This document shows, in pieces, positions 10,687-28,596 of a stretch of 32,000 nt of DNA. The stretch is from Psychrobacillus sp. FSL K6-4046 (GTDB lineage Bacteria; Bacillota; Bacilli; Bacillales_A; Planococcaceae): NCBI RefSeq assembly GCF_038624605.1, contig NZ_CP152020.1:1077312-1109311 (forward strand), given 5' to 3'. The notes under the pieces are model-generated. The model was not told where the DNA came from. It ran no database searches and saw only the letters and a list, made by a program, of their open reading frames with translations. The translations under genes were made by a program, and so were the position numbers. Each line of letters begins with the position of its first letter. The first letter of the stretch is position 1.

Positions 10687-10760
10687 TTACTCTTCACCAT
10701 TCCAATTGACTAATCACATAATTATTAAGAATATCAAAGAAAATGCCCCCTCTGACCCTG
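10687..10760. repeat. repeat family R, copy C (3' part only)
   Basis: TTACTCTTCACCATTCCAATTGAC...AAAGAAAATGCCCCCTCTGACCCTG aligns with 7658-7745 of copy A (TTACTCTTCATCTTTCCCATTCGA...CAGAAAATACCCCCTCCGATGATG). Confidence 0.6.
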
Positions 10761-10766
10761 CTTTTA

Positions 10767-10790
10767 ATAAGGTTTACTAACAGTTATGTA
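10767..10790. repeat. 24-bp repeat S, copy 2
   Basis: ATAAGGTTTACTAACAGTTATGTA; see 7938-7961. Confidence 0.7.
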
Positions 10791-11051
10791 CTATTCTAGG
10801 GTTCTTCGGGTTCCTTTAAGAGGAACTTCGCATTTAGGAACAATAAATAGGAAACCCGGTTCCGTTAAGAGAGCGGCTCCATTAGCCAAGCAAACATGAA
10901 AAAATAATAATAAAGAGGAATAAAGTTTATAAAATACTACACTAATGAATAGAAATTAAAAAAGAATAATGGAAAAGAATTTTTATTAAGTCTCAGAAAA
11001 AAATGAGATATTCGTTTTTAAAAGTCAGAATAATCTGTTTGCCGTTGCCCA

Positions 11052-11080
11052 TTGTATTAGCTATCTAGTAACAGTAAAAT
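11052..11080 (+). promoter_or_regulatory. candidate sigma-A promoter for the BREX operon
   Basis: TTGTAT (11052-11057), 17 nt, then TAAAAT (11075-11080), ~37 nt upstream of the leader ORF start. Pattern match only. Confidence 0.3.
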
Positions 11081-11116
11081 AAGAACTAAGTATAAATTAG
11101 ATACGAGGTGACGTTT

Positions 11117-11353
11117 GTGAAAGTAAAGCTTTTTTACCGTACTCAGCGTGATTTGGCTACTGCGTTAAATCACATTGTTGACGCGTATTGGTCAGAGGAA
11201 ATTAAAGAAGACGAATTGATAGAAGGAATAAAAAGTATGTATTTGAATAATCAGGATAAACTGATGAAAAACAATCAATTTACAACTGTTATACATCAGC
11301 AATGTGGAAAACGGCGATTAACAATTGTTGAAAGAATATTGGATATAAAATAG
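11117..11353 (+). CDS. small hypothetical protein immediately upstream of brxA (78 aa)
   Basis: The ORF track starts at GTG 11108. GTG 11117 lies 5 nt after GAGGTGA, so I prefer it. It ends 31 nt before brxA on the same strand. I recognise no family; there are possible short HTH-like helices (RTQRDLATALNHIV). Confidence 0.5.
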   Translation: MKVKLFYRTQRDLATALNHIVDAYWSEEIKEDELIEGIKSMYLNNQDKLMKNNQFTTVIHQQCGKRRLTIVERILDIK

Positions 11354-11384
11354 ATTTTAAGTCTTGTGTGAAAGGTTGGATTAG

Positions 11385-11981
11385 ATGGTTATAGAATTAG
11401 AATATTCTTCAAGTTTGAACGGTGCATCATATTTGCTGTTCGAGCTAAAGCAAGTTGTTAAATTACAACAAAAGGGTTTATCCACCCAAGAAATTCGAAA
11501 CATAGTAGTTGATGAAAACGTATTCCAGTTTGAGAACAAAGGAAGAATTACTCGAACGTTACCATCTGTAATGAGAAGAGCTAAAGTGATTGATTCAACA
11601 TTAGCATCCCTTTTGACGGAAGGATCAGTTGAAGTGGGTAAAGTCATTAATTTGTACGCCATCATGAAAACGGATTTGCTCTTTTACGAATTCATGAATG
11701 AAGTGATTAGTGAAAAACTGCAAAACAGCGACTATTTAATTGAAAAGAAGGATATCAATCTCTTTTTTACAGCTAAATCCGAACAAAGTGACAAGGTTGC
11801 AAGCTGGAGTATTATTAATACCGAGAAGTTAAAGCGGGCATTTTTGCAAGTGCTATTCGAAAGTGGCATGCTAAAGGATCGACGAGGTAAGGAATTGAAT
11901 CGTTTGATTATCGACGAGCAAATTAAAAACCATTTAATACATATAGGAGATACCCGTTACTTAAGAGCAATGGGTGAGTGA
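11385..11981 (+). CDS. brxA: BREX protein BrxA (DUF1819 family)
   Basis: 198 aa. Size, position as first gene of the cassette and tight coupling to brxB match type 1 BREX. Confidence 0.8.
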   Translation: MVIELEYSSSLNGASYLLFELKQVVKLQQKGLSTQEIRNIVVDENVFQFENKGRITRTLPSVMRRAKVIDSTLASLLTEGSVEVGKVINLYAIMKTDLLFYEFMNEVISEKLQNSDYLIEKKDINLFFTAKSEQSDKVASWSIINTEKLKRAFLQVLFESGMLKDRRGKELNRLIIDEQIKNHLIHIGDTRYLRAMGE

Positions 11982-11992
11982 GGGGTGACAAC

Positions 11993-12559
11993 ATGGCAAA
12001 TTTGAATGCAAGACTGGATCAAATCATACCAAAAATCAAAGAGGACAAGTTTATCGAAGGACGTGGACTTGGAAACGAGATCAGCTTTTATGTCTTCGAT
12101 TACGAACCAGAGGGTGAACTTGTCGTGAGGGATTATATAAAACACATCAAAAAAGAATTCAGTTATGAAGGTTCAAACAGACGAATTATTGAATTCGATT
12201 TATATAAAATTCTACTCGATATCACGAAAGAAAAGAGAATTTTTGATCGTATTTTTGACATGGAGGAAAGACAAGGGAAAGAAGCTTTGTTCAAAGCAAT
12301 GACGACGTTTGCTAAACCAGAAGTTTTTTTACATAAAATAAAGGAACAAATGGGAGATCATAATGTTGTCTTCCTTACTGGAATAGGAAAGGTGTATCCA
12401 TTCGTACGGTCACATAATATCCTTAACAATCTACAAGAAGTATTGGATAAAACGCCTGTCATCATGTTCTTCCCAGGGCAATACGATGGACAGTCATTAC
12501 AATTGTTTAGCAAATTCAAAGATGACAACTACTATAGAGCATTTCGTTTAGTAGATTAG
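11993..12559 (+). CDS. brxB: BREX protein BrxB (DUF1788 family)
   Basis: The ORF track starts at GTG 11978, overlapping the brxA stop. ATG 11993 lies 5 nt after GAGGGGTG, so I prefer it. About 188 aa, second in the canonical order. Confidence 0.8.
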   Translation: MANLNARLDQIIPKIKEDKFIEGRGLGNEISFYVFDYEPEGELVVRDYIKHIKKEFSYEGSNRRIIEFDLYKILLDITKEKRIFDRIFDMEERQGKEALFKAMTTFAKPEVFLHKIKEQMGDHNVVFLTGIGKVYPFVRSHNILNNLQEVLDKTPVIMFFPGQYDGQSLQLFSKFKDDNYYRAFRLVD

Positions 12560-12577
12560 AGAAAAGGGGGAATTTAG

Positions 12578-15500
12578 ATGATACTGAAAGATATGTTTTT
12601 AAAGGATATTGAACGTGATATACGTGGGGTAATTAAAGTTGCACAAACAAATGAAGAGGACATTTACCAAGAGCTTGATGAATATGTTGTGACGCAAGAG
12701 CTACATAAGCACTTATCGAAGTTCTATGATAATTACCAAAAAGGAATTAACGGCAAGACAGACAAAATGGGCGTTTGGATTAGCGGGTTCTTCGGATCGG
12801 GTAAGTCCCACTTTCTCAAAATCCTCGCTTACCTGTTAGAGAACAAGGAAGTGAAAGGGAAGCAACCGATTGATTTCTTTGAGAACAAAGTGCAGGATTC
12901 ACTTGTCTATGCAAATATGAAGCGAACTGCAGATGTCGATACAGAAGTCATTTTGTTCAACATTGATTCCAAAAGTTCCCTTGACAATAAATCCAAAGAA
13001 GATGCAATTTTACGTGTCTTCATGAAGGTGTTTTACGAGCATAGAGGCTATTATGGGGACATTCCAGGCGTTGCAGAGATGGAGAAGTATTTAGACAAGC
13101 AAGGCGTGTACGAAGCGTTTAAAACAGAATTTAAGGCATTAGCCGGTGAATCATGGGAGAGTCGTCGCAACAGTTTCTATTTCGATGCAGATTTTGTTAT
13201 TGGAGCATTGACGAAAGTGACAGATATGTCGGAAGAATCGGCAAGAAATTGGTTTGAAAATGGTGTGAACAACTTTGAAATTAGCATCGAGAAGTTCTCC
13301 AAGGACGTAAAAGAATACATTGATGAAAAAGGCTCGAATTTCCACTTAGTCTTCCTTGTAGATGAAATAGGTCAATATATCGGTGACAGCCGTAATCTAA
13401 TGCTTAACTTGCAAACACTTGCGGAAGATCTTGGAACACATGCACACGGTAAGGTATGGATCATGGTGACTTCACAGGAAAGTATAGATTCTATTGTAAA
13501 AGTTAAAGGTGATGACTTCTCTCGTATACAAGGACGCTTCGATACAAGACTATCACTGTCTTCTATTTCTGTAGATGAAGTAATCAAGAAGCGGATTTTG
13601 AAGAAGCATTCGCATGTTAATGACAAACTAAAAGTTCTCTTCCCTGAAAAGAGTGCCATCTTGAAAAATCTCATTAGCTTCCGAGAAAGTACGGCGGATT
13701 TAAGGGGTTACGATAATGAACATGAATTTGCGGATGTATATCCATTCATTCCGTATCAATTTAAACTTCTGCAAAATGTTTTCGAGCAAGTGAGAAAACA
13801 TGGTTCATCAGGTAAGCACTTATCTGAAGGGGAACGCTCTATGCTTTCGGCATTTAAAGAAGCAGGACTTAGCTATAAAGATGCTGAAGAAGGGACGCTA
13901 ATTCCGTTCTATGCGTTCTACGATACGATAAAAGAATTTCTTAACCCTGCCATTTCAAGAGTTATTGAGGGAGCAAAGGAAAATCCTGCATTAAAAAACG
14001 ATGAATTTAACATCAACTTACTAAAAGTATTGTTCATGATTAAATATATTAAAGAATTACCTTCGAACATTGACAATATCGCAACACTAATGGTGAGAAA
14101 CATGGATGAAGACAAACTACAGCTAAAAGAAAAAATAAAGGTTGCTGTACGAAAACTTACTTCGCAAACACTGATTCAGAAAAACGGGGACTATTTTGTT
14201 TTCTTAACGGATGATGAACAGGATATAAATCGAGAAATTAAACAAATGAACATAGATGAAGATATTGTAAAAAGAGAATTGGCGAACTACATCTTCCAAG
14301 ACATGTTTGATGATAAAAGATTCAATTATTCGAAAGAGTATGCATTCTCCTACAATCAAAAAATGGATGAAAAAAATTATGGCAATCAGACATCAAGTAT
14401 TGGATTGAACATCGTTTCTCCATTATCTGACCATTATCAAAAATCTGATCAGGAAATGATGATGATGACTTCTGGTAGTGGTGAAATGCTTATTAAGCTT
14501 GGTGGAAACGGGATATATGTCGAGGAAATGGAAGAAGCATTAAGAATAGAAGAATTCCGAAAGAAAAAGAATATAACACAGCTTCCAGAAAACATTCAAA
14601 ATATCTTGAACAACAAGCAAGCAGAAGTTCGTGAACGTAGACGTAGAGTGCGTGAATTACTGGAGGATGCTATTAAGGGTGGAGTTTTCTTTATCAATGG
14701 AGATAAAATGGATATCAAAGGTTCTTCTGTTAAGGAAAAAATCAATTCTTCTTTCAAACAGTTGGTCGATAATGTGTATACAAGACTCGGTTATGTGAAC
14801 GAGCATCTGGAAAATGAACGAGCATTGATTCCTATTTTAACCTTAGACAAAGATCAGATTTCTTTTGACGACAAACTTGGTACCAATCCGAATGAACTTG
14901 CTAAGAGAGAAATCTTTGATTTTATCGATTTACAAGATCAAATCCAAAAACAGGTTAGAGTAAAACTTATCTATGATCGCTTCCAAGACAAACCATATGG
15001 GTGGAAACAACTTGACATCGCAGGTCTAATTGCGGAATTACTGAAAGAGCAACGCATTCGTATCCGTTACAATGCTGAATATCTGGAGCCAGAAACAGAT
15101 ACGAACAAATTGCTCACTATATTTGCTAAAACCTCTGAAGCTGATAAAGGAATCATTATTAAGCGAGTAAAAGTAGACGAATCTCTAATTCGTACAGCTA
15201 AAAGAGTGTGTAAAGAGGTCTTTAATACAACAGATTTATCGGATGATGAAGATGGTCTTGTTAAAGATATTCGAGTATTGATTGAAAAACAAATAGCAGA
15301 AATAGTTGCTTATAAAGCACGCTATGAAGGAAGAAAGTATCCAGGTAGAAGCTTACTCGATAAAGGGTTGGAGTATTTTGGACAATTCGATAACAAACTT
15401 GATAATGCTTCCTTCTTTATGAAGCTGAATGAGCTAGAAGATGATTTAGCGGACTGGGAAGAAGATATTGTGTATGTGAAAAGCTTCTTTGGTACTAATC

Positions 15501-16156
15501 AAAAAGAAATATTCGACCAAGGGTTGGCGGGACTGAACAAGTATGAGGAAAATAAAGCATACTTGTCAGTGCAAAAGGTAGTCGGAGCAATGGATCAACT
15601 TCGTTCAATTATTAGTGATCCAGTTCCATATAAAAAAATTAAAGAGATTCCTGAACTAGTTCATGTATTAGAAGAACAAAGCAATCTCGTTTTATTAGAG
15701 AAAAAAGGAAATGCTCACAAAAAATTAAATTCAGACTACGACGAATTGTCATTACATGCGAAGCAATATGGTGTATCCAAAGCAACGAAACAGCGTGTAG
15801 ACGATTACTATGATGAATTAAAAGCCAATTTAAATACTTTTACAGATATTTTCAAAGTAGATGCGACTATTTCACAAAGTACAAGCTACAAAGAACGAAC
15901 AGAAATAGAAATTAGACGTGAAATCATTGAATGGCAACGCAAGAAAGCGGAAGAGCAGAAAAACAAACCTGGTGGAGAAGTGGTGGATCCACCAATCATT
16001 GAATCTGTTATTCAGAAACAAAATGTAAAAGTAACAGAACTCGTTACTATTAAAACACTATCAACTGAGGAAGAAGTGGATCAATATATCAATACACTAT
16101 CCAATAAATTGAAAAAAATCATCAAGTCGAATAAACAAATTGAATTTATAGAATAG
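12578..16156 (+). CDS. brxC: BREX P-loop ATPase BrxC/PglY
   Basis: 1192 aa. Walker A GFFGSGKS at 12785-12808. Walker B-like LVFLVDEIGQY. Long coiled, charged C-terminal half. RBS AAGGGGG. Confidence 0.9.
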   Translation: MILKDMFLKDIERDIRGVIKVAQTNEEDIYQELDEYVVTQELHKHLSKFYDNYQKGINGKTDKMGVWISGFFGSGKSHFLKILAYLLENKEVKGKQPIDFFENKVQDSLVYANMKRTADVDTEVILFNIDSKSSLDNKSKEDAILRVFMKVFYEHRGYYGDIPGVAEMEKYLDKQGVYEAFKTEFKALAGESWESRRNSFYFDADFVIGALTKVTDMSEESARNWFENGVNNFEISIEKFSKDVKEYIDEKGSNFHLVFLVDEIGQYIGDSRNLMLNLQTLAEDLGTHAHGKVWIMVTSQESIDSIVKVKGDDFSRIQGRFDTRLSLSSISVDEVIKKRILKKHSHVNDKLKVLFPEKSAILKNLISFRESTADLRGYDNEHEFADVYPFIPYQFKLLQNVFEQVRKHGSSGKHLSEGERSMLSAFKEAGLSYKDAEEGTLIPFYAFYDTIKEFLNPAISRVIEGAKENPALKNDEFNINLLKVLFMIKYIKELPSNIDNIATLMVRNMDEDKLQLKEKIKVAVRKLTSQTLIQKNGDYFVFLTDDEQDINREIKQMNIDEDIVKRELANYIFQDMFDDKRFNYSKEYAFSYNQKMDEKNYGNQTSSIGLNIVSPLSDHYQKSDQEMMMMTSGSGEMLIKLGGNGIYVEEMEEALRIEEFRKKKNITQLPENIQNILNNKQAEVRERRRRVRELLEDAIKGGVFFINGDKMDIKGSSVKEKINSSFKQLVDNVYTRLGYVNEHLENERALIPILTLDKDQISFDDKLGTNPNELAKREIFDFIDLQDQIQKQVRVKLIYDRFQDKPYGWKQLDIAGLIAELLKEQRIRIRYNAEYLEPETDTNKLLTIFAKTSEADKGIIIKRVKVDESLIRTAKRVCKEVFNTTDLSDDEDGLVKDIRVLIEKQIAEIVAYKARYEGRKYPGRSLLDKGLEYFGQFDNKLDNASFFMKLNELEDDLADWEEDIVYVKSFFGTNQKEIFDQGLAGLNKYEENKAYLSVQKVVGAMDQLRSIISDPVPYKKIKEIPELVHVLEEQSNLVLLEKKGNAHKKLNSDYDELSLHAKQYGVSKATKQRVDDYYDELKANLNTFTDIFKVDATISQSTSYKERTEIEIRREIIEWQRKKAEEQKNKPGGEVVDPPIIESVIQKQNVKVTELVTIKTLSTEEEVDQYINTLSNKLKKIIKSNKQIEFIE

Positions 16157-16171
16157 GAGGCTGATACGGTT

Positions 16172-19100
16172 ATGAATAAAACAGCATTGAAAAACTTTGC
16201 AACAAGTGCAAGAAAAGAATTGCTTGAAAGAGTAGAACTGCAAGCACGAAAACTTGGAATTACAGCCGAATCCATTCAAACAGCAAATATAGAAAGTTCG
16301 GATGCCGTCTTTATTGACGGAAAACAGCTTTTAGATACAGAAAGAAGACAACGTAACAAACTTATTGCCCGAATAAATGAAATAGGCTTTAACCGTGTAA
16401 TGGAAGAAACATCCTACACGTGGTTCAACCGTTTTATCGCACTTCGTTACATGGAAGTCAACGATTATTTGCCAACTAAAGTACGTGTTCTTTCCTCAAA
16501 TTCAGGCAGTGCCGAACCAGATATGATGAAAGAAGCATTATCGTTGGATTTAGAGTTAGACAAAGAATATGTTTACGATTTAAAGGTGAATAACAAAACG
16601 GATGAACTGTTCAAATATCTAATTAAAATGCATTGTAACGATTTGAACCGTTACTTGCCATTTATGTTTGAAACAATTGAAGACTATACTGAAATTCTCT
16701 TTCCAGAGGGATTACTTGGGACGGATTCGTTTGTCCGTCAGATGACAAATATAGAGGAAATTCCTGAAGGTAACTGGGAAAAAATTGAGGTAATTGGATG
16801 GCTTTATCAATACTATATTGCCGAAGAAAAAGACCGTGTTTTCAAAGCGAAAACAAAATATAAAACTGAAGAAATACCTTTTGCTACCCAGCTCTTTACA
16901 CCCGATTGGATTGTTCAATATATGGTGCAGAATTCGCTCGGACGTTACTGGGTAGAAGCCCACCCTGAACATCGTGACTTGCTTGATGGCTGGGAGTTTT
17001 ACTTGGAAAACAAACAAGAAGACTTTCAAGATAAAATCGCTCAGTATGTAAACAAAGAAATAAACGTGGAAGACATCAAATGTTTCGATCCTGCTATGGG
17101 GAGTGGACATATTCTTGTGTATATGTTTGATGTACTCTACGAGATTTATAGCAAATGTGGTTACATGGAAAGAGAAATCCCCCGACTTATCATCGAGAAT
17201 AATTTATATGGATTAGACATTGATGATCGAGCCTATCAATTGGCAAGCTTTTCAGTTGTCATGAAAGGATTACAATATAATAGACGTTTCTTGAGAAGTA
17301 TCGAAAAAGATGGATTAACGATTAATTTGGCATCTGTGCAAGAAACGAATGGATGGACTGAAGATGAGATTGAATATGTAGCGGGCCAAGGTAATGGTGT
17401 TAAATTTGAGCATACTAAAGCATTTATTGACCAATTTAATAATGCCAAAACATTCGGATCCCTTATTAAAGTAAGGCAATCTGATTTATCTATTTTAGAA
17501 AATAGACTTCATGAAATCAAATTATCACCTGTCGAAGATATTTTCCAAACAGAAAAGCGTGAGCGAGCATTAGCATTGTTCCCACAACTAATTAAACAGA
17601 CCAATATTATGAAGAAGCAATACGACATTGTCATTATGAATCCACCCTACATGGGTTCGGGAAGTATGAACAAAGTATTGTCCGATTTTTTAAGAATTAA
17701 CTATCCTGATTCGAAATCAGATCTGTTTGCCTCATTCATGGAAGTCAATCACTATTTAAAACAAAACAGTTTCTATGCGGCCATCAATCAACATTCGTGG
17801 ATGTTCTTATCTAGTTTTGAGAAGTTGCGGGAAAAAGTTATTAAAACCAAATTTATCGACTCAATGTTGCACTTAGGCCCAAGAGCGTTCGAGGAAATCG
17901 GTGGGGAAGTTGTACAATCGACAGCGTTTGTACTACGAAATACTGAAGTTCCAGATAGCAAAGGAACTTATTTAAGGTTGATTAAAGAAAAAACAGCAAG
18001 TGAAAAGAAAGAAAAAGTGGTGAAAGCTGTTCAAAATCCTTCTGTTTCATATCGATACTTATTTGACCAAGTAAACTTTAGTAATATCCCAGGTAGTCCT
18101 GTAGCTTATTGGATGAGTGATAGAATAGGCCAATTATTCAAAACTACACCTAATGTTTCAGAGGTGGCAAGTGCAAGACTGGGTTTAGCAACTGGAGATA
18201 ATGATAGATTTATGAGGGAATGGTTTGAGGTAAGTAAAGAAAATACAGCTTTCAATATGAGTTCAAGAGAGGAAGCAAAACTAAGTAATATTAAATGGTT
18301 TCCAATGAACAAAGGAGGAAGTTATAGGAAATGGTATGGTAACAATGACCTCGTTGTAAATTGGCAAAATGACGGGGAGGAAATTAGAAATTTTAAAGAT
18401 AATTTTGGTAAGCTCCGTTCCCGTCCGCAAAATCTAAGGGATTGTTTTGTGCCTGGAATTTCATGGACTGTTATTAGTTCGAAAAGCTCGTTTAGGTATT
18501 CACCTGAAGGGTTTTTATATAATAACAAGGGGCCCTGCATAAATTCGACAAATGAAGAAAATGATACTACATTATTAGGAATACTGAACTCTAAAGTAAC
18601 AGAATATATTTTGCAATTACTTTCGCCGACTATAGGATTTGAAGCTGGATATATTTCTAAAATTCCTATTGTGTTTGAGCAAGACATACAACCTACACTA
18701 AACAATATTGTTCGTCAAAATATCTTGATTTCTAAGAACGAATGGGATTCCAGAGAAACATCATGGGATTTTGGTAAACATCCTTTCGTAAAAAAACTTT
18801 CTTCAAAAGTTGAATTAGCATTCAATGAATGGAAAGAATCAAGTGAGGAACAGTTTAGGAATCTCAAATTAAATGAAGAAGAAATTAACCATATCCTAAT
18901 TGAAATATACGGTTTACAAAACGAACTTACACCTCAAGTTGAAGAAAAAGATGTCACCATTCATAAAGCAGATTTAGAACGTGACATCAAAAGTTTCATC
19001 TCTTACGCTGTCGGGTGTTCTTTCGGCCGTTATTCACTTGACGAAGAAGGGCTTATCTATGCAGGTGGTGAATTTGATATTTCACGTTATAAAACATTCC

Positions 19101-19690
19101 CAGCAGATGAAGATAATATCCTTCCGATCTTGCCAGGTACTTATTTCGAAGATGACATTGTAACAAGATTCGTTGATTTCGTTCGTGTCACATTTAGTGA
19201 AGAAACGCTTCAAGAGAATCTTGATTTTGTGGCGGATGCTGTTGGTCGGAAGAAGAATGAAACAGCGAGGGAAGTATTGCGTCGTTACTTCTTGAATGAT
19301 TTTTATAAAAATCATGTACAAGTGTATAGCAAGCGTCCTATTTACTGGCTGTTTACATCCGGCAAGGAAAAAGCGTTTAATTGTCTCATATATATGCATC
19401 GCTATGACAAAACGACGCTTTCTCGTATTAGGACTGACTATTTGCATGAGGTTCAGACTCGCTTGGATGCGGAGAAAAAGGACTTGCTTGACATCATTGA
19501 AGGGGATTCCACAACGAAGGAAATCAGCGATGCGAAAAAAGAATTGAAATCACTCAATAAAAAAATCGACGAGTTGAAAGATTATGACGAGCTGTTGCAT
19601 CATATGGCAGATATGCAGATTGAGATTGATTTGGATGACGGTGTGAAAGTGAATTATGAGAAGTTTAATGGGTTAGTGGCGAAGATTTGA
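16172..19690 (+). CDS. pglX: BREX N6-adenine DNA methyltransferase PglX
   Basis: 1172 aa. Catalytic NPPY at 17639-17650 (VIMNPPYMGSGS). SAM-binding-like FDPAMGSGHIL. Type IIG-like C-terminal specificity region. RBS AGGAGG. Confidence 0.9.
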   Translation: MNKTALKNFATSARKELLERVELQARKLGITAESIQTANIESSDAVFIDGKQLLDTERRQRNKLIARINEIGFNRVMEETSYTWFNRFIALRYMEVNDYLPTKVRVLSSNSGSAEPDMMKEALSLDLELDKEYVYDLKVNNKTDELFKYLIKMHCNDLNRYLPFMFETIEDYTEILFPEGLLGTDSFVRQMTNIEEIPEGNWEKIEVIGWLYQYYIAEEKDRVFKAKTKYKTEEIPFATQLFTPDWIVQYMVQNSLGRYWVEAHPEHRDLLDGWEFYLENKQEDFQDKIAQYVNKEINVEDIKCFDPAMGSGHILVYMFDVLYEIYSKCGYMEREIPRLIIENNLYGLDIDDRAYQLASFSVVMKGLQYNRRFLRSIEKDGLTINLASVQETNGWTEDEIEYVAGQGNGVKFEHTKAFIDQFNNAKTFGSLIKVRQSDLSILENRLHEIKLSPVEDIFQTEKRERALALFPQLIKQTNIMKKQYDIVIMNPPYMGSGSMNKVLSDFLRINYPDSKSDLFASFMEVNHYLKQNSFYAAINQHSWMFLSSFEKLREKVIKTKFIDSMLHLGPRAFEEIGGEVVQSTAFVLRNTEVPDSKGTYLRLIKEKTASEKKEKVVKAVQNPSVSYRYLFDQVNFSNIPGSPVAYWMSDRIGQLFKTTPNVSEVASARLGLATGDNDRFMREWFEVSKENTAFNMSSREEAKLSNIKWFPMNKGGSYRKWYGNNDLVVNWQNDGEEIRNFKDNFGKLRSRPQNLRDCFVPGISWTVISSKSSFRYSPEGFLYNNKGPCINSTNEENDTTLLGILNSKVTEYILQLLSPTIGFEAGYISKIPIVFEQDIQPTLNNIVRQNILISKNEWDSRETSWDFGKHPFVKKLSSKVELAFNEWKESSEEQFRNLKLNEEEINHILIEIYGLQNELTPQVEEKDVTIHKADLERDIKSFISYAVGCSFGRYSLDEEGLIYAGGEFDISRYKTFPADEDNILPILPGTYFEDDIVTRFVDFVRVTFSEETLQENLDFVADAVGRKKNETAREVLRRYFLNDFYKNHVQVYSKRPIYWLFTSGKEKAFNCLIYMHRYDKTTLSRIRTDYLHEVQTRLDAEKKDLLDIIEGDSTTKEISDAKKELKSLNKKIDELKDYDELLHHMADMQIEIDLDDGVKVNYEKFNGLVAKI

Positions 19691-19780
19691 CTTTGCAACG
19701 AGGGGCAATTCGTATGTTGAATTGCTTCGTTTCAACTTACGAGATAAAGAAAATCTAAACAATTGAAAAGAGGGGAAAAG

Positions 19781-20416
19781 ATGGAAGATGTTTTTTCAAA
19801 TAACATTGACATTAACAAAAATGCTTATATAAATTGGCGGATTGAAAAACATAATCCTATTAAAAATATGTTGACCATAGCTGATGGTTTTATGGAATCT
19901 TCTATTATATTAGCAGAACAGGCTTTAGAAGATAATAGGGATAAAAAAGCAGATATCATAATCTACCCTATCCTTTTTAATGCTAACCATGCAATTGAAT
20001 TGTATTTGAAGGCAATTGGATGGACAGTTAATATACTTCTCCATAATGATAAAAAAGTAGAAGGCGGACATGATATTCAGCAAATCCTTAATGTAGTTAA
20101 ATCAAGAGTTAATGAATTTGAGATGGATAAGGATCGAAAGAAAACTTTCAAAGAGTTGATAAGCAATCTGGAGAATTATATTAAGGAACTATTTTTAAAA
20201 ATTGAAACAGAAGATGGTGGAAAAAAGAAAGGTAACATGGATTTTTCCAGATATCCTTTTGATACGAAGTATGTATCGCATTTCTATATAGAAACATTTG
20301 ATAATGTTGTCGTAGATTTAGAGAACTTTGTTGAAAAATTTAAAGAAATAGGACAGAACTTGAACCAAATTGCGTTCCATTATCTATATGATTTTTTACT
20401 TGCTGAAAATGAATGA
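19781..20416 (+). CDS. HEPN-like all-alpha protein inserted between pglX and pglZ (211 aa)
   Basis: ATG 19781 lies 5 nt after GAGGGG; the ORF track starts at TTG 19763. The motif series LFNANHAIELYLKAIG ... GGHDIQQIL ... FSRYPFD matches my recollection of the classical HEPN pattern (AvEkaLKA ... tHdL..L ... RYp). I find no canonical Rx4-6H. It is visibly more AT-rich than the flanking BREX genes. Confidence 0.45.
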   Translation: MEDVFSNNIDINKNAYINWRIEKHNPIKNMLTIADGFMESSIILAEQALEDNRDKKADIIIYPILFNANHAIELYLKAIGWTVNILLHNDKKVEGGHDIQQILNVVKSRVNEFEMDKDRKKTFKELISNLENYIKELFLKIETEDGGKKKGNMDFSRYPFDTKYVSHFYIETFDNVVVDLENFVEKFKEIGQNLNQIAFHYLYDFLLAENE

Positions 20417-20456
20417 GAGCTTGGGCAATATTGGTTTATGAAAGTAGGTGAGGTCA

Positions 20457-23015
20457 ATGAATATTAGTCAAATTGAATCCGCACTAAAGGATATTTTTAA
20501 TGAACCGCTAAAAGACGGTGAACAGCGAAAGATTGTATTCTGGGTGGACAAGGACGGAGAATTTATTGAAGAGATTGAGCAATTGAAGATTGCTGGTGTT
20601 AGAGTCCAAACATTATCTAATCAGAACCAATTTTACATGAAGCATTTGTTGGAGGTAGAAGATCCGATCTCTTCCTATTTAATCTATACAAATTTGGAGT
20701 TAGGTGTAGAGGATAACTGGTTGGCAGATACAGTTTTGTATTCGAAGACGTTTTTTGCGGATCGGGTATCGCTTATTTTGAGTGAGCTTCAGATTGACCC
20801 ATCCCTTAGAGCTGTAATTAAAAAATATGAGCGTTTTTTCAATAATAAGGAACGTTTTAAAAAATTTCAGGCACTCGGTATAGAAGGTTTTACAGAAGAA
20901 AAAATCGAGTTAGCAATAATGAGTGTTTTGTGTAACGAGAAGACACCTGATTTTGAAGGTGTGTTAAAGGCTGTTCTGATGGATACGCTGAATGATAGTG
21001 ATAACAAGTATTTATCACATATGGATAAATATTTTGATATAATCGTGTTCTGGAAGTATGTTGCGAATAAATACGGGTATGAGCGTGAAACAAAGACATT
21101 AAAGACTTTATTTATGCATTTAACTGTGACGGCATTAAGTCACTCCATTAGTGAGAATTCTTTAACGGCCGTCAAAGAATTTATTGCAGTGCGAAATAAA
21201 ACAAATGCATTAGTATTTATTGACCACTGGATGCATCATAAAACGGATTATTCTGTGTTTGATGAATATGCTGATATGGTTGAACAAGAAATTCAACTTT
21301 CTAATATCATGCAATCTATTCCATTAGAAGAATTCAAACAAGCAGATACATTCTCATATATCGATAAAGCCATTATTATTTATATTGCGAACAGCCTTAT
21401 GGAGAAGTTAGAAGATTATGAGGAATATTCGAAGCTGATTAAATTAAGACGTGCGAAACATTACTATGAGCAATATGCGTCCGTTTATAATGCACTTTAT
21501 TATACGGTGAAAATGCATGCATTTTATAAAGAGCATCAAAAAGGAATGCCACAAGGGCAAGCTATTGATCTGTATCAGGCTTATGTAAACGAGTTCTCTA
21601 AAATGGATACATATTATCGTAAGTTCTATGTTGCATACGATGAAGAAAGTAACCATGAGTTATTGAAGAAGTTAAAAGAACTTGTGGAAAACATGTACAC
21701 AAATTGGTATATGGGTGAGTTAAGCTCTCACTGGTCACAGGCAGTAAAAAGTGAAATGATGAATAATTGGACACTTCCTGGTCTGCAAAATCAACAAAGT
21801 TTCTATTCGTCTTTCATTGCACCGCATATCCGTAGAGGTGAGCGTGCGTTTGTTATCATTTCAGATGCTATGCGATATGAAGTAGGAGTTGAACTTGCTG
21901 AGCGATTGAATTCTGAAACGATGGGGATTTGTGATATACAGACGCAACTTGGTGTGTTGCCATCTGTCACAAAACTAGGCATGGCTTCACTCCTCCCACA
22001 TCGAAACTTGGATTTTGATGAGAATGGACGTGTACTTGTAAATGACAGAGACTCGTCAGGACTCGAAAGTCGTAAGAAGATTATCGAGTCATATGTGGAA
22101 GATAGTGTTGTGATGCATTTTCAAGATGTGTTTGATATGAATAAAGCAGGTAGACGTGAAACGTTTAAAGGAAAGAAACTTATCTACTTATACCACGATA
22201 CAATTGATGCGATGGGTGATAAGGCATCTACGGAGATATACACCTTTAATGCAGTAGAAACTGCCTTGAATCAGTTGTATGACTTAGTGAAAATCATTCG
22301 AGATGATTTGAGTGGAACAAATGTATACATTACTGCAGATCACGGTTTTCTTTATCAACGAGATACGCTTCCAGAAAGTGATAAGATTGAAAAGGAGTCA
22401 ATAGATGTTATAGAAGTGAAACGTCGCTACTTACTTTCAAAAGAAAAACGTGAGATCTCAGGGCAACTTGCGATTGATTTGTCAACAATCGTGGATAACG
22501 AACAACAATTGACAGCTTATGTACCAAACGGAACAATTCGCAATCGGATGCAAGGCTCTGGAGTAAACTTTGTCCACGGTGGTGCAAGCCTTCAGGAAAT
22601 CGTTGTACCAGTGCTGTCCTTTAAAAATAAACGAGCAGGTCAAAAAGGTTCGCAAGCAATCCAAAAAGTAGACATTAGGCTGACCAACACGACACGCAAA
22701 ATTACGAATAGTATCTTTAACTTAGAGTTCTTCCAAACAGAAAAAGTAGAAGAAAAAATGGTATCTCGTACAGTTCTCATTTATATGGGCGATGATGAAG
22801 GAAATATACTATCGAACGAAGAAACGATAATAGGGGATCGCTCTTATGATAATCCTGCAGAACGTACATTTAAGCTTCAGTTTGTCTTGAAAAGCATATC
22901 TTATGATCGAAGCAAGACGTATTATTTAATAATTAAAGATATGGAAACTGGTGTTATTACTGAAAAAATACCGTTTACAATTAACTTAGGAATTGTTAGC
23001 GATTTTGATTTTTAA
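20457..23015 (+). CDS. pglZ: BREX alkaline-phosphatase-superfamily protein PglZ
   Basis: 852-855 aa (GTG 20448 or ATG 20457). PglZ-like core AFVIISDAMRYEVG ... YITADHGF. Canonical position before brxL. Confidence 0.9.
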   Translation: MNISQIESALKDIFNEPLKDGEQRKIVFWVDKDGEFIEEIEQLKIAGVRVQTLSNQNQFYMKHLLEVEDPISSYLIYTNLELGVEDNWLADTVLYSKTFFADRVSLILSELQIDPSLRAVIKKYERFFNNKERFKKFQALGIEGFTEEKIELAIMSVLCNEKTPDFEGVLKAVLMDTLNDSDNKYLSHMDKYFDIIVFWKYVANKYGYERETKTLKTLFMHLTVTALSHSISENSLTAVKEFIAVRNKTNALVFIDHWMHHKTDYSVFDEYADMVEQEIQLSNIMQSIPLEEFKQADTFSYIDKAIIIYIANSLMEKLEDYEEYSKLIKLRRAKHYYEQYASVYNALYYTVKMHAFYKEHQKGMPQGQAIDLYQAYVNEFSKMDTYYRKFYVAYDEESNHELLKKLKELVENMYTNWYMGELSSHWSQAVKSEMMNNWTLPGLQNQQSFYSSFIAPHIRRGERAFVIISDAMRYEVGVELAERLNSETMGICDIQTQLGVLPSVTKLGMASLLPHRNLDFDENGRVLVNDRDSSGLESRKKIIESYVEDSVVMHFQDVFDMNKAGRRETFKGKKLIYLYHDTIDAMGDKASTEIYTFNAVETALNQLYDLVKIIRDDLSGTNVYITADHGFLYQRDTLPESDKIEKESIDVIEVKRRYLLSKEKREISGQLAIDLSTIVDNEQQLTAYVPNGTIRNRMQGSGVNFVHGGASLQEIVVPVLSFKNKRAGQKGSQAIQKVDIRLTNTTRKITNSIFNLEFFQTEKVEEKMVSRTVLIYMGDDEGNILSNEETIIGDRSYDNPAERTFKLQFVLKSISYDRSKTYYLIIKDMETGVITEKIPFTINLGIVSDFDF

Positions 23016-23031: not shown

Positions 23032-25089
23032 ATGGAAGAGAGAGTGGAAGAAACGTTGACGCTTGATCTTGATAAAAAGCTGAATGAAGCATTTGCAGGT
23101 CGTGTCGTCCGTAAAGACTTGACGAAACTTATCAAAGAAGGGGCAAACGTGCCTATATATGTGCTGGAATACTTGCTTGGCATGTATGCTGCCACAGATG
23201 ATGAAGAAAGTATTCAACAAGGTGTAGACCGTGTTAAAAAGATTCTCTCTGATAATTTTGTTCGTCCAGATGAAGCAGAGAAAATTAAATCACGTATTCG
23301 TGAGCTTGGTCAATATTCAATTATTGATAAGGTGACAGTGGCCTTGAATCCCAAGATTGACACTTATGAAGCAGAGTTTTCTAATCTTGGATTAAAAGGT
23401 GTTCCTATTTCCTCTAACTTAGTGAAAGAGTTCGATAAGCTCTTAGTTGGTGGTATTTGGTGCATGATCAAGATTGATTATTTTTATGATGAAGAAACAA
23501 AGGTAATGAATCCTTTTAGTGTCTGTAGTTTGCAACCAATTCAAATGCCGAATATGGATATGGAAGAGGTGTTTGAAGGGCGAAAACAGTTCACTAAAAA
23601 AGAGTGGATTGATGTTTTAATTCGTTCAACTGGAATGGAACCAACACAATTAGAGGAACGTGTGAAATGGCATCTGCTGTTAAGACTCGTGCCTTTAGTG
23701 GAAAATAACTACAACATGTGTGAACTCGGCCCTCGTGGTACAGGTAAATCGCATGTTTACAAAGAAATTAGTCCGAATTCTATATTAGTTTCAGGTGGAC
23801 AATCTACCGTAGCTAATCTCTTTTATAACATGACTACCCGTAAGGTAGGATTGGTAGGTATGTGGGATACCGTGGCTTTTGATGAAGTGGCAGGGATTCA
23901 CTTTAAAGATAAAGACGGAATCCAAATTATGAAGGATTATATGGCATCGGGAAGTTTCGCTCGTGGCAAAGAAGAGAAAAATGCTTCGGCTTCTATGGTG
24001 TTTGTCGGAAATATTAATCAAAGTGTAGATGTATTATTGAAAACTTCACATCTATTCGCCCCCTTCCCACCAGAAATGGCAAATGACACTGCTTTCTTTG
24101 ATCGTATGCACTATTATATGCCTGGTTGGGAAATTCCTAAGATGCGACCTGATTTATTTACTGATAAGTATGGATTTATTGTTGATTATCTTGCTGAATT
24201 TTTCCGTGAAATGCGTAAACGACAGTATGCAGATTCAATAGACCGTTATTTCAAGCTTGGAAACAACTTGAATCAACGAGATACAGTCGCAGTTCGAAAG
24301 ACTGTTTCTGGTATGGTAAAACTCATTTATCCGAATGGTGAATTCACGAAAGAAGATGTAGAGGAAATCTTACAATATGCTCTTGAAGGTCGTCGTCGTG
24401 TTAAGGAACAGCTTAAGAAAATCGGTGGCATGGAGTTTTATGATGTGATGTTTTCGTATATCGATAAAGAGTCGTTGAACGAAGAATATGTATCTGTTCC
24501 AGAACAAGGTGGAGGAAAGCTCATACCAGAAGGAATGGGTAAACCAGGCCATGTGTACGTGGTAGGACACGGTCAGACGGGTATGATAGGTGTTTACAAG
24601 CTAGAGAACCAAGTTGTAAGTGGAACTGGGAAGTTTGATAGGTCCGGCTTAGGATCCTCGAGAGACGCTAAAGAAAGTCTTGATACTGCTTTCAGGTATT
24701 TCACTGCCAATAGCAAAAGTATTAGTAATTTAATCAGCACAAAAACTAAAGATTACCTAATGCACATAAGTGACCTGCAGGGGATTGGTATTACAAGTGA
24801 ACTTGCTGTAGCTGAACTAATTGGTTTATGCTCTGGAGCACTAGAGAAACCGGTCCAAGAGAGTATGGTTATTATCGGAAACATGACTGTTGGCGGAACG
24901 ATTGCAAAGGTTGAAGAATTTGCGAATACATTACAAGTATGTGTAGATGCTGGTGCTAAAAAAGTGTTGATACCAGCAGCATCTGTAATGGATTTGCAGA
25001 CGGTTCCACCAGACTTACTAGTAAAGGTACAACCAGTGTTTTATGCAGATCCTATAGATGCAGTGTTTAAAGCGTTAGGAGTTAATTAG
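23032..25089 (+). CDS. brxL: BREX Lon-like protease/ATPase BrxL
   Basis: 685 aa. Walker A GPRGTGKS at 23728-23751. C-terminal Lon protease-like domain (GLCSGAL ... GAKKVLIP). RBS GAGGGGGTG. Confidence 0.9.
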   Translation: MEERVEETLTLDLDKKLNEAFAGRVVRKDLTKLIKEGANVPIYVLEYLLGMYAATDDEESIQQGVDRVKKILSDNFVRPDEAEKIKSRIRELGQYSIIDKVTVALNPKIDTYEAEFSNLGLKGVPISSNLVKEFDKLLVGGIWCMIKIDYFYDEETKVMNPFSVCSLQPIQMPNMDMEEVFEGRKQFTKKEWIDVLIRSTGMEPTQLEERVKWHLLLRLVPLVENNYNMCELGPRGTGKSHVYKEISPNSILVSGGQSTVANLFYNMTTRKVGLVGMWDTVAFDEVAGIHFKDKDGIQIMKDYMASGSFARGKEEKNASASMVFVGNINQSVDVLLKTSHLFAPFPPEMANDTAFFDRMHYYMPGWEIPKMRPDLFTDKYGFIVDYLAEFFREMRKRQYADSIDRYFKLGNNLNQRDTVAVRKTVSGMVKLIYPNGEFTKEDVEEILQYALEGRRRVKEQLKKIGGMEFYDVMFSYIDKESLNEEYVSVPEQGGGKLIPEGMGKPGHVYVVGHGQTGMIGVYKLENQVVSGTGKFDRSGLGSSRDAKESLDTAFRYFTANSKSISNLISTKTKDYLMHISDLQGIGITSELAVAELIGLCSGALEKPVQESMVIIGNMTVGGTIAKVEEFANTLQVCVDAGAKKVLIPAASVMDLQTVPPDLLVKVQPVFYADPIDAVFKALGVN

Positions 25090-25090
25090 T

Positions 25091-25119
25091 CTCGTTCATA
25101 TTTGAACGAGGCTTTTTTT
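25091..25119 (+). terminator. rho-independent terminator of the BREX operon
   Basis: CTCGTTCA (25091-25098) pairs with TGAACGAG (25103-25110), followed by GCTTTTTTT. Confidence 0.8.
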
Positions 25120-25388: not shown

Positions 25389-26072
25389 TCAAATGGTGAC
25401 AAGTTCTGTAAGTTTGGTCACGACGTCTTCTATCGGTTCTTCGGCAGTACTCAGACCACTTCGTGAACCAAGCAAAGGACTGACTTCGCGTAGAGCTTCA
25501 TACGTAGTGCCGTGCACAATCGGAATGAGACGCTCGCCAGAGAGGAGTACCGAAAGTTCTTTGTCGGCAATACCCTCTGTTTGGAGGCGACTTAGCAACG
25601 CAGGGGTCACCAGCACAAGCCCAACTCGCGATTTCGCCAACCCCTTGTCTATTGCACGAAGTAGCGGCACGCCGAGGCCAACGTCTTTTTCACTGAACCA
25701 GACGGAGACACCTTGTGCCTCAAGCAGGTCGTGCAGATCCTTGGCGACTCCCTTCCGATCGTCCCAAGCATGGCAGAGGAAGACGTCCCTAAGGTCAAGA
25801 TCATCTCGCTCAGCCAGCTTTTCGACGCTGTTACGGATTGGTGTGAGTGCCCTAACTTCTTGAATCGTGTACACCACAGACGAACCTGCTCCCGACCAAC
25901 GTGGTTTTGCACTGCTGCCGGACCCTCCGCTACTACTTAAGCTGCCTCCACTTCTATAAGATGGGGGTGAGTACGACCTATAGTTGCTACTGTATCTCCC
26001 ACCGCACGCTGGGCAGTTGGCTCGTGCACTGGCTGATTGATGCCCCCTTACTGGAGCCGTACATCTAGCCAT
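25389..26072 (-). CDS. stand-alone TIR-domain protein with a Cys-containing, Ser/Gly-rich N-terminal extension
   Basis: 227 aa. TIR-like core: DVFLCHAWDDRKGVAKDLHDLLEAQGVSVWFSEKDVGLGVPLLRAIDKGLAKSRVGLVLVTPALL. N-terminus: MARCTAPVRGHQSASARANCPACGG, followed by an S/G/Y-rich low-complexity stretch. RBS GGGGGT lies 7 nt upstream. Three 60-nt lines I counted give 52%, 60% and 52% GC, against 40% for a brxL line. Confidence 0.8.
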   Translation of the reverse strand: MARCTAPVRGHQSASARANCPACGGRYSSNYRSYSPPSYRSGGSLSSSGGSGSSAKPRWSGAGSSVVYTIQEVRALTPIRNSVEKLAERDDLDLRDVFLCHAWDDRKGVAKDLHDLLEAQGVSVWFSEKDVGLGVPLLRAIDKGLAKSRVGLVLVTPALLSRLQTEGIADKELSVLLSGERLIPIVHGTTYEALREVSPLLGSRSGLSTAEEPIEDVVTKLTELVTI

Positions 26073-26646: not shown

Positions 26647-28596
26647 ATGGCTATTCACGATCTTCAATTACGGCAGTTAATGTACGTCCTTTTGAATGAG
26701 AAAGATGGTGTTTTTATGGAAAAATACAAAAATAAGGAGTTCTTGATTCAAAAGTTAAAGGTGGAAAAGTTATCCTATAACCAATTAGCCGTCCAATTGG
26801 GTTGCGGTGTGTCAACTCTTAGATATTGGATAAAGAAGCACGGAATTGAACTAAGAGGAAATTTACAAAAAGAGTTATTAAAGAACAAAAGAAAAATCAC
26901 GGAAATGTACATTCAGCAAAACAAGACATTGAAGGAGATTGGTGAGGCATTTAATTGCTCACAACAAACGGTCCTGAATTTTATTAATGCTGAGGGGATC
27001 TATAAGGACATCAACCGTTGGCAGAGATGGGAGGAAGAAGAAGTCAGGGATTTGATCCGTTTAAGAAATGAAGGCAAAAAACTTGGCGAAATCTATCAAT
27101 TCTTTAAAGGTAAATACAATGAGAACAAAATCTCACACAAATTAAATTCACTGGGATTTTTCAGGGAGGAAGTATGGAGTGAAGATGAAGAACGAATGCT
27201 AAAAGAGTGCGACGGGCTAAGTATGAATGAAATCCTCCCATTATTCCCTCATAAGGATTATAGTCAAATTCTTTATAAAGCCGGTGCATTAAAGGTAGAT
27301 ATCAGATTGATGAACAGACCCTGGTCAGAGAATGAAAGACAGGTTTTGATAAACAATCCAGACAAAACACTCGACGAATTGGCTGCAATGCTGGACAGAA
27401 GCAGTAACGCTATCTGGACGAAAATCAAAGAGGAGAAATTGACATTTAAGAAGAAGGTCGTGATGGCAAGTGATATAATAGACAATAAAATCACATGCCC
27501 TAAATGCGGTGAGTTAAAGGAATATACAGAAGAAAACTTCAACTTGAACATAAACTACTACACTTGCATTAATTGCAGAAACAAAATCACCAACATTACA
27601 AAATATAGGTTAAAATACGGAATTACGCTAGATTTCGAAAAGATGTTTAATACCTTTACAGCCATCGAATGGTATCATATGTATTTGGATGGTCGTATTA
27701 GTAAATTGCCTCAAGAAATATACGACTCACATGTGAAGAGAAATGAAATCATTGTTCACATCATAAAGGAATTGCTAAAAAAGGAAAGCAGAGAAGATAT
27801 CATTGAATTGAATTACAATGACATCCGAAGGTACAAAATCACATATTTTCTTCTTGGAAATAATATATGCGACATTTTAAACGATGTATTTTCAGAATAC
27901 AACTTCAAACATTGGGAATTCCGGTTGGTTCCAGGGGATTTTTGGAGTGAGAAACAACACGCAGATGAATATCTTCGATGGTTTGTTGAAACCAGGTTGA
28001 ATATCAACGAATTAAATATCAACAGGGATATCCCTAAAATTTTTACAGTTTCCTCATTAAGAATAATTGGAGAACATCGTTTGAACCGTTGTTTGCATGA
28101 ATATGATCACTATGGGAGCTACTATGAATGGTTGTCCTATATATTTCCACAGTGGGGTCTTCAACCTGAAAATTTCAAATTAAGTATCTCCTTCGATGGC
28201 GTTGTGTTTGATTCCAATGAAGAATGTTTGATTTATGAATATTTAAAAAGAGAATGTGGGATTTCTATTACTTATGTAGGAAACCAACGATTTTATAAAT
28301 TTTGGAATGAAGAACATAATGAGTCGTATATTCCGGACTTTGTAATCAGTAAAATCAATAATATAAAGCTAGATAAGCCTCTCATAATGGAATATTATGG
28401 ATTGTACAATCCTAATTTAACCGATTCTTTCTTCCAAGATTATTGCGAGAAAACCTGTAGGAAAAATGCCTTTTACAAACAGAACGGGGATATTTACTTC
28501 CTAGATATTTATCCCTATGACTTGGTATCAACTTTCAAAGGAGTCTCCGAAAAACTGAATGCTTTTAACAAACAGGAAATAAATAGGGAAAGATGA
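26647..28596 (+). CDS. multi-domain DNA-binding protein: 2 HTH modules, 3 Myb/SANT-like repeats, zinc ribbon, C-terminal PD-(D/E)xK-like nuclease fold
   Basis: 649 aa from ATG 26647 (no SD) or 626 aa from ATG 26716 (MEKYKNKEF...). HTH modules: SYNQLAVQLGCGVSTLRYWIKKHGI and NKTLKEIGEAFNCSQQTVLNFINAEGI. W-x-x-E-E repeats: WEEEEVRDLIRLR, WSEDEERMLKE, WSENERQVLIN. Zinc ribbon: CPKCG-x22-CINC. C-terminus: FDSNEECLIYEYL ... YIPDFVI ... LIMEYYG (an E / PDF / ExxG arrangement, as in DUF559/TnsA-N-type folds). Confidence 0.7.
   Translation: MAIHDLQLRQLMYVLLNEKDGVFMEKYKNKEFLIQKLKVEKLSYNQLAVQLGCGVSTLRYWIKKHGIELRGNLQKELLKNKRKITEMYIQQNKTLKEIGEAFNCSQQTVLNFINAEGIYKDINRWQRWEEEEVRDLIRLRNEGKKLGEIYQFFKGKYNENKISHKLNSLGFFREEVWSEDEERMLKECDGLSMNEILPLFPHKDYSQILYKAGALKVDIRLMNRPWSENERQVLINNPDKTLDELAAMLDRSSNAIWTKIKEEKLTFKKKVVMASDIIDNKITCPKCGELKEYTEENFNLNINYYTCINCRNKITNITKYRLKYGITLDFEKMFNTFTAIEWYHMYLDGRISKLPQEIYDSHVKRNEIIVHIIKELLKKESREDIIELNYNDIRRYKITYFLLGNNICDILNDVFSEYNFKHWEFRLVPGDFWSEKQHADEYLRWFVETRLNINELNINRDIPKIFTVSSLRIIGEHRLNRCLHEYDHYGSYYEWLSYIFPQWGLQPENFKLSISFDGVVFDSNEECLIYEYLKRECGISITYVGNQRFYKFWNEEHNESYIPDFVISKINNIKLDKPLIMEYYGLYNPNLTDSFFQDYCEKTCRKNAFYKQNGDIYFLDIYPYDLVSTFKGVSEKLNAFNKQEINRER

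Follow-up and report, generated by a model that had tools for sequence, protein, structure and literature searches.

HEPNx, a solo HEPN-fold protein between pglX and pglZ of a Psychrobacillus type 1 BREX operon, as a candidate accessory defence effector

Introduction

In a 32,000-nucleotide (nt) stretch of the genome of Psychrobacillus sp. FSL K6-4046 (contig NZ_CP152020.1, positions 1,077,312 to 1,109,311; hereafter the window, to which all coordinates refer unless a locus is named), a complete type 1 bacteriophage exclusion (BREX) operon carries an additional gene at the junction of pglX and pglZ. Its product, a solo HEPN-fold protein of 211 amino acids (aa) encoded at 19781..20416, is labelled here HEPNx, and we favour, with moderate confidence, its reading as an autonomous accessory defence effector of the HEPN-T/AbiV-like kind. 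The family to which it belongs behaves as mobile accessory defence cargo, found in defence islands, on plasmids and in integrative elements with no obligate partner, and it has settled repeatedly at the seams of defence operons based on modification, namely at the pglX-pglZ junction of one Bacillota type 1 BREX lineage and downstream of the hsdM/hsdS genes of type I restriction-modification (R-M) systems. An autonomous effector is preferred to a BREX subunit because most members of the family are found without BREX or R-M genes, have no fixed partner and reside in defence-island and mobile-element contexts.

The mechanism of BREX is still incomplete, and the accessory effectors found in BREX loci are now thought to constitute a second layer of defence. 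Being small, strongly conserved, outside the curated models and stably inherited with one Bacillota BREX lineage, the HEPNx family offers Gram-positive hosts a clean candidate for this second layer, and it would also be a test case for HEPN-T/AbiV-like proteins devoid of the canonical Rx4-6H motif. The gain is incremental, since the general idea is not new.

The HEPNx gene

The HEPNx coding sequence lies on the + strand, from an ATG at 19781 to a stop codon at 20416, and its 211-aa translation was 100% identical to WP_342567783.1 of the same strain in a homologue search. The list of open reading frames (ORFs) reports a longer entry starting from a TTG (19763-20416, 217 aa), inside which the ATG at 19781 is the preferred start. 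Reading of the sequence places a Shine-Dalgarno element, GAGGGG, at 19770..19775 on the + strand, 5 nt before this ATG, and the GAGG(G/T)G form of the element is also present in the orthologous loci of Bacillus sp. B-jedd and Lysinibacillus. The upstream neighbour is pglX, coding for the BREX methyltransferase (16172-19690, + strand; Pfam Eco57I, N6_Mtase and MmeI_Mtase), from which HEPNx is separated by a spacer of exactly 90 nt (19691-19780). Downstream, 41 nt lead to the ATG of pglZ at 20458, the preferred start of this gene (20458-23015, + strand; Pfam PglZ, E=7e-59), or 31 nt if the GTG at 20448 is considered; this GTG, which is the start given in the ORF list, falls within the Shine-Dalgarno element of pglZ itself, AGGTGAGG. 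Pfam identified all six core genes of a type 1 BREX system in the window, in the order brxA-brxB-brxC-pglX-pglZ-brxL and all on the + strand. A preliminary description of this DNA, made from the sequence alone, had reported a 211-aa gene with a good Shine-Dalgarno element of its own at the pglX-pglZ junction, with spacers of 90 and about 40 nt, and these results agree with it in each respect.

A word-indexed database search retrieved 155 homologues. When the representatives of 1.84 billion clusters (defined at 50% identity) were searched with a profile, 985 clusters matched at E ≤ 1e-3, of which 98 reached E ≤ 1e-30; almost all are single-domain proteins of 200-250 aa. The ratio of nonsynonymous to synonymous substitution rates, calculated against three orthologues, is 0.08-0.11. 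HEPNx is a real gene under selection.

Fold and conserved residues

Structural modelling supports a HEPN fold of the classical type for HEPNx, i.e. a four-helix up-down bundle as in the solved HEPN domains. The AlphaFold2 model, obtained from a 36-sequence alignment, has a pLDDT of 86 and a pTM of 0.85, and in a Foldseek search of the PDB with this model the first five places are taken by HEPN proteins, namely 4nqf (two chains), 2hsb, 1wol and 1ufb, with a probability of 0.98 and a target TM of 0.69 for 2hsb; the sacsin HEPN domain and the MntA-HepT toxins rank below these five. When the BFVD viral library was searched by structure, an unnamed protein ranked first and a 'HEPN domain-containing' protein second. 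At the sequence level, the sole recurrent Pfam match is PF05168 (HEPN), which is found in HEPNx with 19.8 bits (E=9.4e-4, profile positions 8-82 of 117), in 27 of 36 members of the family (best E=9e-5) and in 16 of 113 diverse members (best E=1.6e-5), always below the gathering cut-off. Profile hidden Markov models built from the 36 and the 113 sequences found only designed coiled coils in the PDB, so that no solved relative is detectable by sequence. No ATPase domain was matched in HEPNx, which is a single domain of 211 aa, and for the 113 members PADLOC gave only scattered single matches. The classical HEPN fold had been suggested in the preliminary description from the motifs AIELYLKA, GHDIQQIL and SRYP; the comparison by Foldseek, proposed there as a check, put HEPN proteins on top.

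Residue conservation was computed over 282 non-identical family members. D58, E73 and K77 are conserved in 100% of them, H97 in 99%, R157 in 98%, W19 in 97% and Y158 in 96%, while position 70 is His in 90% and Gln otherwise. The three motifs just mentioned occur in HEPNx and coincide with the positions that the family conserves best (E73, K77, H97, R157 and Y158). So strict a polar constellation, shared by about 1000 clusters from two phyla, speaks for a genuine site of catalysis or ligand binding.

About nine loci (L010-L015, L019, L024 and L025) have two family genes in tandem, for example at 9303-9959 and 10001-10633 of L014, and the second copy is a divergent paralogue of only 20% identity in which the D58/H70/E73/K77/H97/R157/Y158 constellation is kept. 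Because the paralogue retains the conserved residues of the family, in the pattern D...(H/Q)xxExxxK...GGH...RY, the sequences suggest that the two proteins may form heterodimers. Several of these tandem pairs adjoin rpsB-tsf.

Distribution of the family

The family survey, in which each species was represented by one genome, gave 80 loci from Bacillota and Bacteroidota. Only two of them contain BREX genes, those of Sporolactobacillus inulinus (L039) and Clostridium amylolyticum (L068), and in both the family gene follows pglX; at the remaining 78 loci there are no BREX genes, and the family is therefore not a core component of type 1 BREX. The framing of the gene as a BREX-specific module, adopted in the preliminary description, has to be corrected on the same count. 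Further BREX loci were provided by the closest homologues, from Bacillus sp. B-jedd (91%), a metagenome contig (80%) and Lysinibacillus (78%), and by other BREX contigs whose family genes are 72%, 71% and 70% identical to HEPNx, and the gene is located between pglX and pglZ in all of the nine BREX instances. The occurrence in BREX is restricted to one Bacillota BREX lineage and one divergent Clostridium locus. Two homologues about 70% identical to HEPNx, P0011 and P0012, lie outside BREX.

Type I R-M genes are found within 10 kb at 13-14 of 84 loci and, in 11-12 of these, the family gene is co-oriented with hsdM/hsdS and downstream of them. L082 and L083 show the gene embedded in the operon, in the order hsdM-hsdS-HEPNx-ABC ATPase-...-hsdR; the ATPase that follows it in these two loci is of the AAA_15/AAA_21 type. 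DUF3800 proteins accompany the family repeatedly (L020-L022, L070, L075 and L083), at the 3' end of type I R-M operons or inside them.

Such a placement recalls PrrC, and HEPNx might be a guard of the methylation module, kept bound and inactive on PglX/PglZ (on HsdM/HsdS in R-M systems) and set free once the host system has been disabled by an anti-restriction protein of a phage. This role is attractive because the gene directly follows the methyltransferase or specificity gene, pglX in nine of nine BREX loci and hsdS in L056, L057 and L082; furthermore, HEPNx co-diverges with the BREX core genes (see below), and the PrrC-EcoprrI pair offers a precedent, which has been proposed to hold also for HEPN genes linked to R-M systems (PMC3710099). 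Against this role stands the large number of solitary members, among which are some 70% identical to HEPNx; about 65 of the 80 loci have neither BREX nor type I R-M genes nearby. Moreover, the regulatory ABC ATPase domain of PrrC and RloC is missing, and PglX and HsdM/S are different partners, both of which a single protein would not be expected a priori to bind. On these grounds we consider the guard role unlikely. Its generalization, a portable guard that docks on PglX modules in BREX and on HsdM/S modules in type I R-M and kills or arrests the cell through a non-canonical site (D58, H70, E73, K77, H97 and R157) when a phage neutralises the module, appears to us quite improbable; if it were true, a minimal protein of one domain, lacking any ATPase, would be enough to carry out the logic of PrrC.

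The immediate neighbours of the family genes (n=148) are heterogeneous and include AbiL/AriA/HEC-01-like ABC ATPases (4), Shedu SduA (3), SIR2 (3), HsdS (3) and TraG (2), as well as an AbiGi-like gene and a DUF4062 gene. Pfam revealed no recurrent partner gene among them; a nucleotidyltransferase of the MNT type was likewise absent from their recurrent Pfam matches and from the window. Integrases are present at 10 family loci, and the plasmid copies adjoin a phage-plasmid lysis cassette, lie within a megaplasmid island or stand alone. A phage origin of the family was considered and rejected: of 50,697 phage records 0 gave a match, and IMG/VR yielded only 4 contigs.

Composition and inheritance

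HEPNx has a GC content of 28.9% (25% at third codon positions) and the six BREX genes range from 35.6 to 39.2%, so the gene is indeed more AT-rich than its neighbours, as first noted in the preliminary description. Windows of 636 nt with a comparable AT-richness do not occur within the BREX genes and make up 0.9% of those across the whole 32 kb. The low GC content is not peculiar to this locus: in every context examined, the gene of the HEPNx family is 3-9 GC points below its neighbours.

The identity of HEPNx to its orthologues embedded in five BREX loci is 91, 78, 72, 73 and 38%, to be compared, in the matching loci, with 86, 80, 81, 75 and 43% for BrxC and, for the first three and the fifth, with 82, 75, 76 and 37% for PglZ. 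HEPNx co-diverges with BrxC and PglZ and, since its identities track theirs, it is a long-standing passenger of this BREX lineage, with which it has long been co-inherited. Co-divergence with the BREX core, together with the low GC content in every context, indicates that AT-richness is a family trait and rules out a recent insertion of HEPNx. Convincing direct or inverted repeats bracketing the gene were not found in the window.

The pglX-pglZ junction and its transcription

The pglX-pglZ junction is a cargo site, which accommodates from one gene up to a whole CRISPR-Cas9 system. At L068, in Clostridium amylolyticum, the HEPN-fold gene is followed within the pglX-pglZ gap (10632-16912) by genes for a HipA_C kinase and a HipA_N+HIRAN protein and by the full set of Cas9-Cas1-Cas2, so that a whole type II CRISPR-Cas system is nested within the BREX operon. 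In L039 (9343-9957) and L095 (280-828), a second cargo ORF, about 180 aa long, separates pglX from the HEPN-fold gene; the two products are 63% identical to each other and belong to no Pfam family. The L039 ORF (204 aa) was considered as a paralogue of the family and rejected; by hmmsearch, too, the family profile matched neither this ORF nor the L095 relative (182 aa). The presence of cargo at this point fits the structure of the Bacillus cereus prototype, which consists of two operons, brxABC-pglX and pglZ-brxL, according to a secondary citation in PMC9881135; the same arrangement had been given in the preliminary description.

A conserved stem-loop is located just 3' of the pglX stop codon, at 19702..19728 on the + strand, with the sequence GAGGGGCAAUUC-GUAUG-UUGAAUUGCUUC. 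It forms part of the minimum free energy fold of the 90-nt spacer, which as a whole has -17.3 kcal/mol (z = -1.8), and RNAalifold on five BREX loci gave 15 pairs, 2 of which show compensatory changes; the 11-mer TTGAATTGCTT is identical in four of the aligned loci. The U tract that follows is weak in the window and better, UUUUCUUU, in two orthologous loci. From these sequence features, the stem-loop looks like a terminator or an attenuator of the first operon. Simple scans for terminators and promoters flagged nothing in either spacer of HEPNx, so that neither the stem-loop nor any internal promoter within the 90 nt was picked up; at this locus, the terminator scan reported a single strong intrinsic terminator, 3' of brxL (25088-25113).

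An RNA hairpin in front of the gene could also be taken as the antitoxin side of a cryptic toxin-antitoxin or addiction module, for example type III-like with an upstream RNA; HEPNx would be its toxin, and the module would mainly stabilise its host island or operon. AbiV requires an upstream RNA of this sort, abiV2, which inhibits the RNase (bioRxiv 10.1101/2024.05.05.592566), BREX loci conserve the hairpin directly ahead of the gene, and about nine loci have tandem pairs of divergent paralogues. The hairpin, on the other side, goes with the end of pglX and is missing before the family gene in L039, in L095 and in the non-BREX loci; a sequence-level comparison across contexts found no upstream RNA or small ORF shared by the family, the one 17-nt match being an AT-rich chance match; and none of the 113 members matches an AbiV model of Pfam or PADLOC at E ≤ 0.01. 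We therefore hold a toxin-antitoxin module to be very improbable.

Function of HEPNx

The reading of HEPNx as an autonomous effector must be weighed against several observations, of which the first concerns its chemistry. The canonical Rx4-6H motif is absent from the family, as anticipated by the preliminary description: position +4 after R157 is D/N/T/S and no conserved His follows at +5 to +7, H167 (+10 from R157) is conserved in only 68% and, with R20 conserved in 87%, H24 is found in about 45%. An Arg precedes H97 by 5-7 residues in 39 of 278 members (14%), whereas 66% have no more than a Lys there. Nuclease activity is thus not assured, and some PF05168-type HEPN domains, such as that of sacsin, bind nucleotides and are not RNases. 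Concerning the fold, the score of HEPNx is below the PF05168 gathering cut-off (19.8 against 22 bits), which denies it formal Pfam membership, and the E-values of Foldseek against the PDB are weak (0.2-3). For HEPNx itself, PADLOC-DB v2.0.0 returned 0 families at E ≤ 1 and NCBIfam nothing meaningful. Finally, no antitoxin or regulator that would restrain a toxin was found, and the enrichment in defence contexts is judged from counts of neighbours, without a genome-wide background model. All these points count against the effector.

Several of them would be accommodated by a HEPN protein that is neither toxic nor catalytic, i.e. a nucleotide-binding protein, an adaptor or regulator of the neighbouring genes, or a protein with no role in defence. 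Apart from the lack of Rx4-6H and of a visible antitoxin carried alongside, the nearest fold relatives, of the PF05168 type, include ligand-binding HEPN domains, and some family loci adjoin housekeeping genes such as rpsB-tsf. Against it speak the strict polar constellation, which in about 1000 clusters and two phyla points to a defined active or ligand site, the prevalence of defence and mobile-element genes in the neighbourhoods, rather than one regulated operon, and the lack of a DNA-binding domain; we judge a non-catalytic protein to be rather unlikely.

We return, therefore, to the autonomous effector. The roles put forward in the preliminary description, which may each apply, were an abortive-infection back-up RNase, a sensor or regulator of BREX, and an inactive adaptor. 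HEPNx would probably be dimeric and, by analogy with HEPN-T and AbiV, RNA cleavage by the dimer is its most likely chemistry, with the uncertainty imposed by the missing Rx4-6H; its defence function, toxicity, RNA substrate and mode of activation are what we infer for it. The gene would probably be expressed together with pglZ-brxL, or by read-through past the hairpin that follows pglX. The protein would be a latent toxin, acting as an RNase or as a nucleotide-dependent effector, able to halt an infection that escapes BREX, and would most likely provide a second, BREX-independent layer of protection.

The BREX operon and the surrounding island

The other BREX genes of the window, all on the + strand, are brxA (11385-11981; Pfam BrxA), brxB (11978-12559; Pfam BrxB), brxC (12578-16156; Pfam BrxC domains) and brxL (23032-25089; Pfam BrxL_N, BrxL_ATPase and Lon_C). 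A small conserved ORF of 81 aa precedes brxA (11108..11353, + strand); its product is 71% identical to that of the PF27871 CLB_0814_fam gene in the BREX locus of B-jedd, and the same family is called at the equivalent position in Lysinibacillus loci too, so that it may be a BREX-associated regulator.

The operon appears to sit on an integrative island, with mobile-element markers at 2944-9268 of the window. This region, upstream of BREX, includes, on the - strand, a 714-aa protein without Pfam match (2944-5088), a tyrosine integrase (5085-6446) and an HTH_17 excisionase-like gene (6454-7005), followed by an IS3 transposase orfB (8447-9268) with an 89-aa ORF just upstream (8121-8390). Directly after the BREX terminator, a TIR-domain gene is found on the - strand (25389-26072; Pfam TIR_2, E=5e-14), in a region of strongly atypical composition (46-51% GC against 35% for the window), and it is probably a separately acquired defence cargo. 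Further downstream of BREX and the TIR gene, a 649-aa protein (26647-28596) has several helix-turn-helix (HTH) motifs in its N-terminal part, with a mad1-like HTH in PADLOC and no assignment for the rest. For a CoA-transferase family III ORF (29472-30131), the match is confined to the C-terminal half of the profile (positions 176 to 366 out of 366); the gene may have been truncated by the insertion of the island and mark its right boundary.

Comparison with known systems

HEPN genes linked to R-M systems, and one Pgl-linked family, were catalogued in 2013 and proposed to encode second-line suicidal RNases (PMC3710099). Later, loci of BREX, DISARM and type I R-M systems were mined for embedded genes as defence candidates, with the validation of HEC-08, an embedded HEPN protein unrelated to HEPNx (bioRxiv 10.1101/2024.01.29.577857), and a survey of 2026 counts stand-alone HEPN modules among the commonest RNases embedded in BREX loci and presumes them to be back-up effectors (PMC12839542). 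The arrangement described here is therefore of a known kind, published in 2013, 2024 and 2026. The preliminary description had stated that the BREX types described so far include nothing of this sort, which is right in that HEPNx is not a core component but is not supported in view of these three reports. What is new is the particular family, which is unnamed, has a non-canonical site and lies outside PADLOC v2.0.0, NCBIfam and the above-threshold matches of Pfam; it may, even so, figure in the HEPN table of PMC12839542, although the parts covered of the supplements of that survey and of the Payne preprint contain no mention of the HEPNx protein by accession.

The best matches of HEPNx, by both profile and structure, are with the HEPN-T group (PF05168; AF0298/2HSB, TT1696/1UFB, ST0689/1WOL and the sacsin HEPN domain, 3O10). 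They have in common the (H/Q)xxExxxK signature in a long helix, a His where the following helix begins, and R-Y-P ahead of the last one; in HEPN-T, as in HEPNx, D (or N, in the shared pattern) replaces the H after the Arg and a conserved His is found elsewhere, and stand-alone forms of HEPN-T are clustered with R-M operons (PMC3710099). Unlike HEPN-T, HEPNx is about 85 residues longer, with a conserved N-terminal extension (F5, N18, W19 and R20) and a three-helix insertion (99-141), and its family has no recurrent MNT nucleotidyltransferase partner. It also differs from the MNT-HEPN (type VII) toxin-antitoxin systems, since an adjacent MNT antitoxin gene is missing.

AbiV of Lactococcus is a dimeric HEPN RNase of about 200 aa with an essential N-terminal segment, a flexible loop bearing 91-RNHKSKH-97, conserved E67 and K70 on the long helix and a beta-hairpin before the last helix, its closest structures being 2HSB, 1UFB and 3O10 (bioRxiv 10.1101/2024.05.05.592566); it is listed as HEPN-T-related, without the motif in the canonical position and with an alternative conserved His (PMC3710099). 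HEPNx shares with it the size, the occurrence in Bacillota, an N-terminal segment before the core bundle and then a helical insertion, the beta-hairpin before the last helix, the Glu/Lys pair on the long helix, a His near position 97 in a flexible loop and the same nearest PDB structures. This likeness of architecture is drawn from the description in the preprint, not from a superposition, and denotes resemblance rather than membership. Indeed, unlike AbiV itself, the 113 members have no AbiV match (Pfam at E ≤ 0.01, PADLOC at E ≤ 1), only 14% of the HEPNx members have the Arg 5-7 residues before H97, and sequence comparison found no conserved abiV2-like upstream element for the family.

With PrrC and RloC, HEPNx relatives have in common the lodging of a HEPN protein between hsdS and hsdR of type I R-M operons (L082 and L083), to which BREX is added by analogy, and a presumed second-line role (PMC3710099). 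HEPNx differs from both in having neither Rx4-6H nor the ABC ATPase domain, which in those proteins is N-terminal and fused to a C-terminal HEPN anticodon nuclease; furthermore, most members of its family occur away from R-M and BREX loci, while PrrC is embedded almost without exception (bioRxiv 10.1101/2024.01.29.577857). Finally, HEPNx resembles the embedded effectors BrxU, PARIS and HEC-08 in being an extra effector gene flanked by core genes, and it represents a family distinct from HEC-08, a DUF3644 protein with Rx4-6H and zinc fingers.

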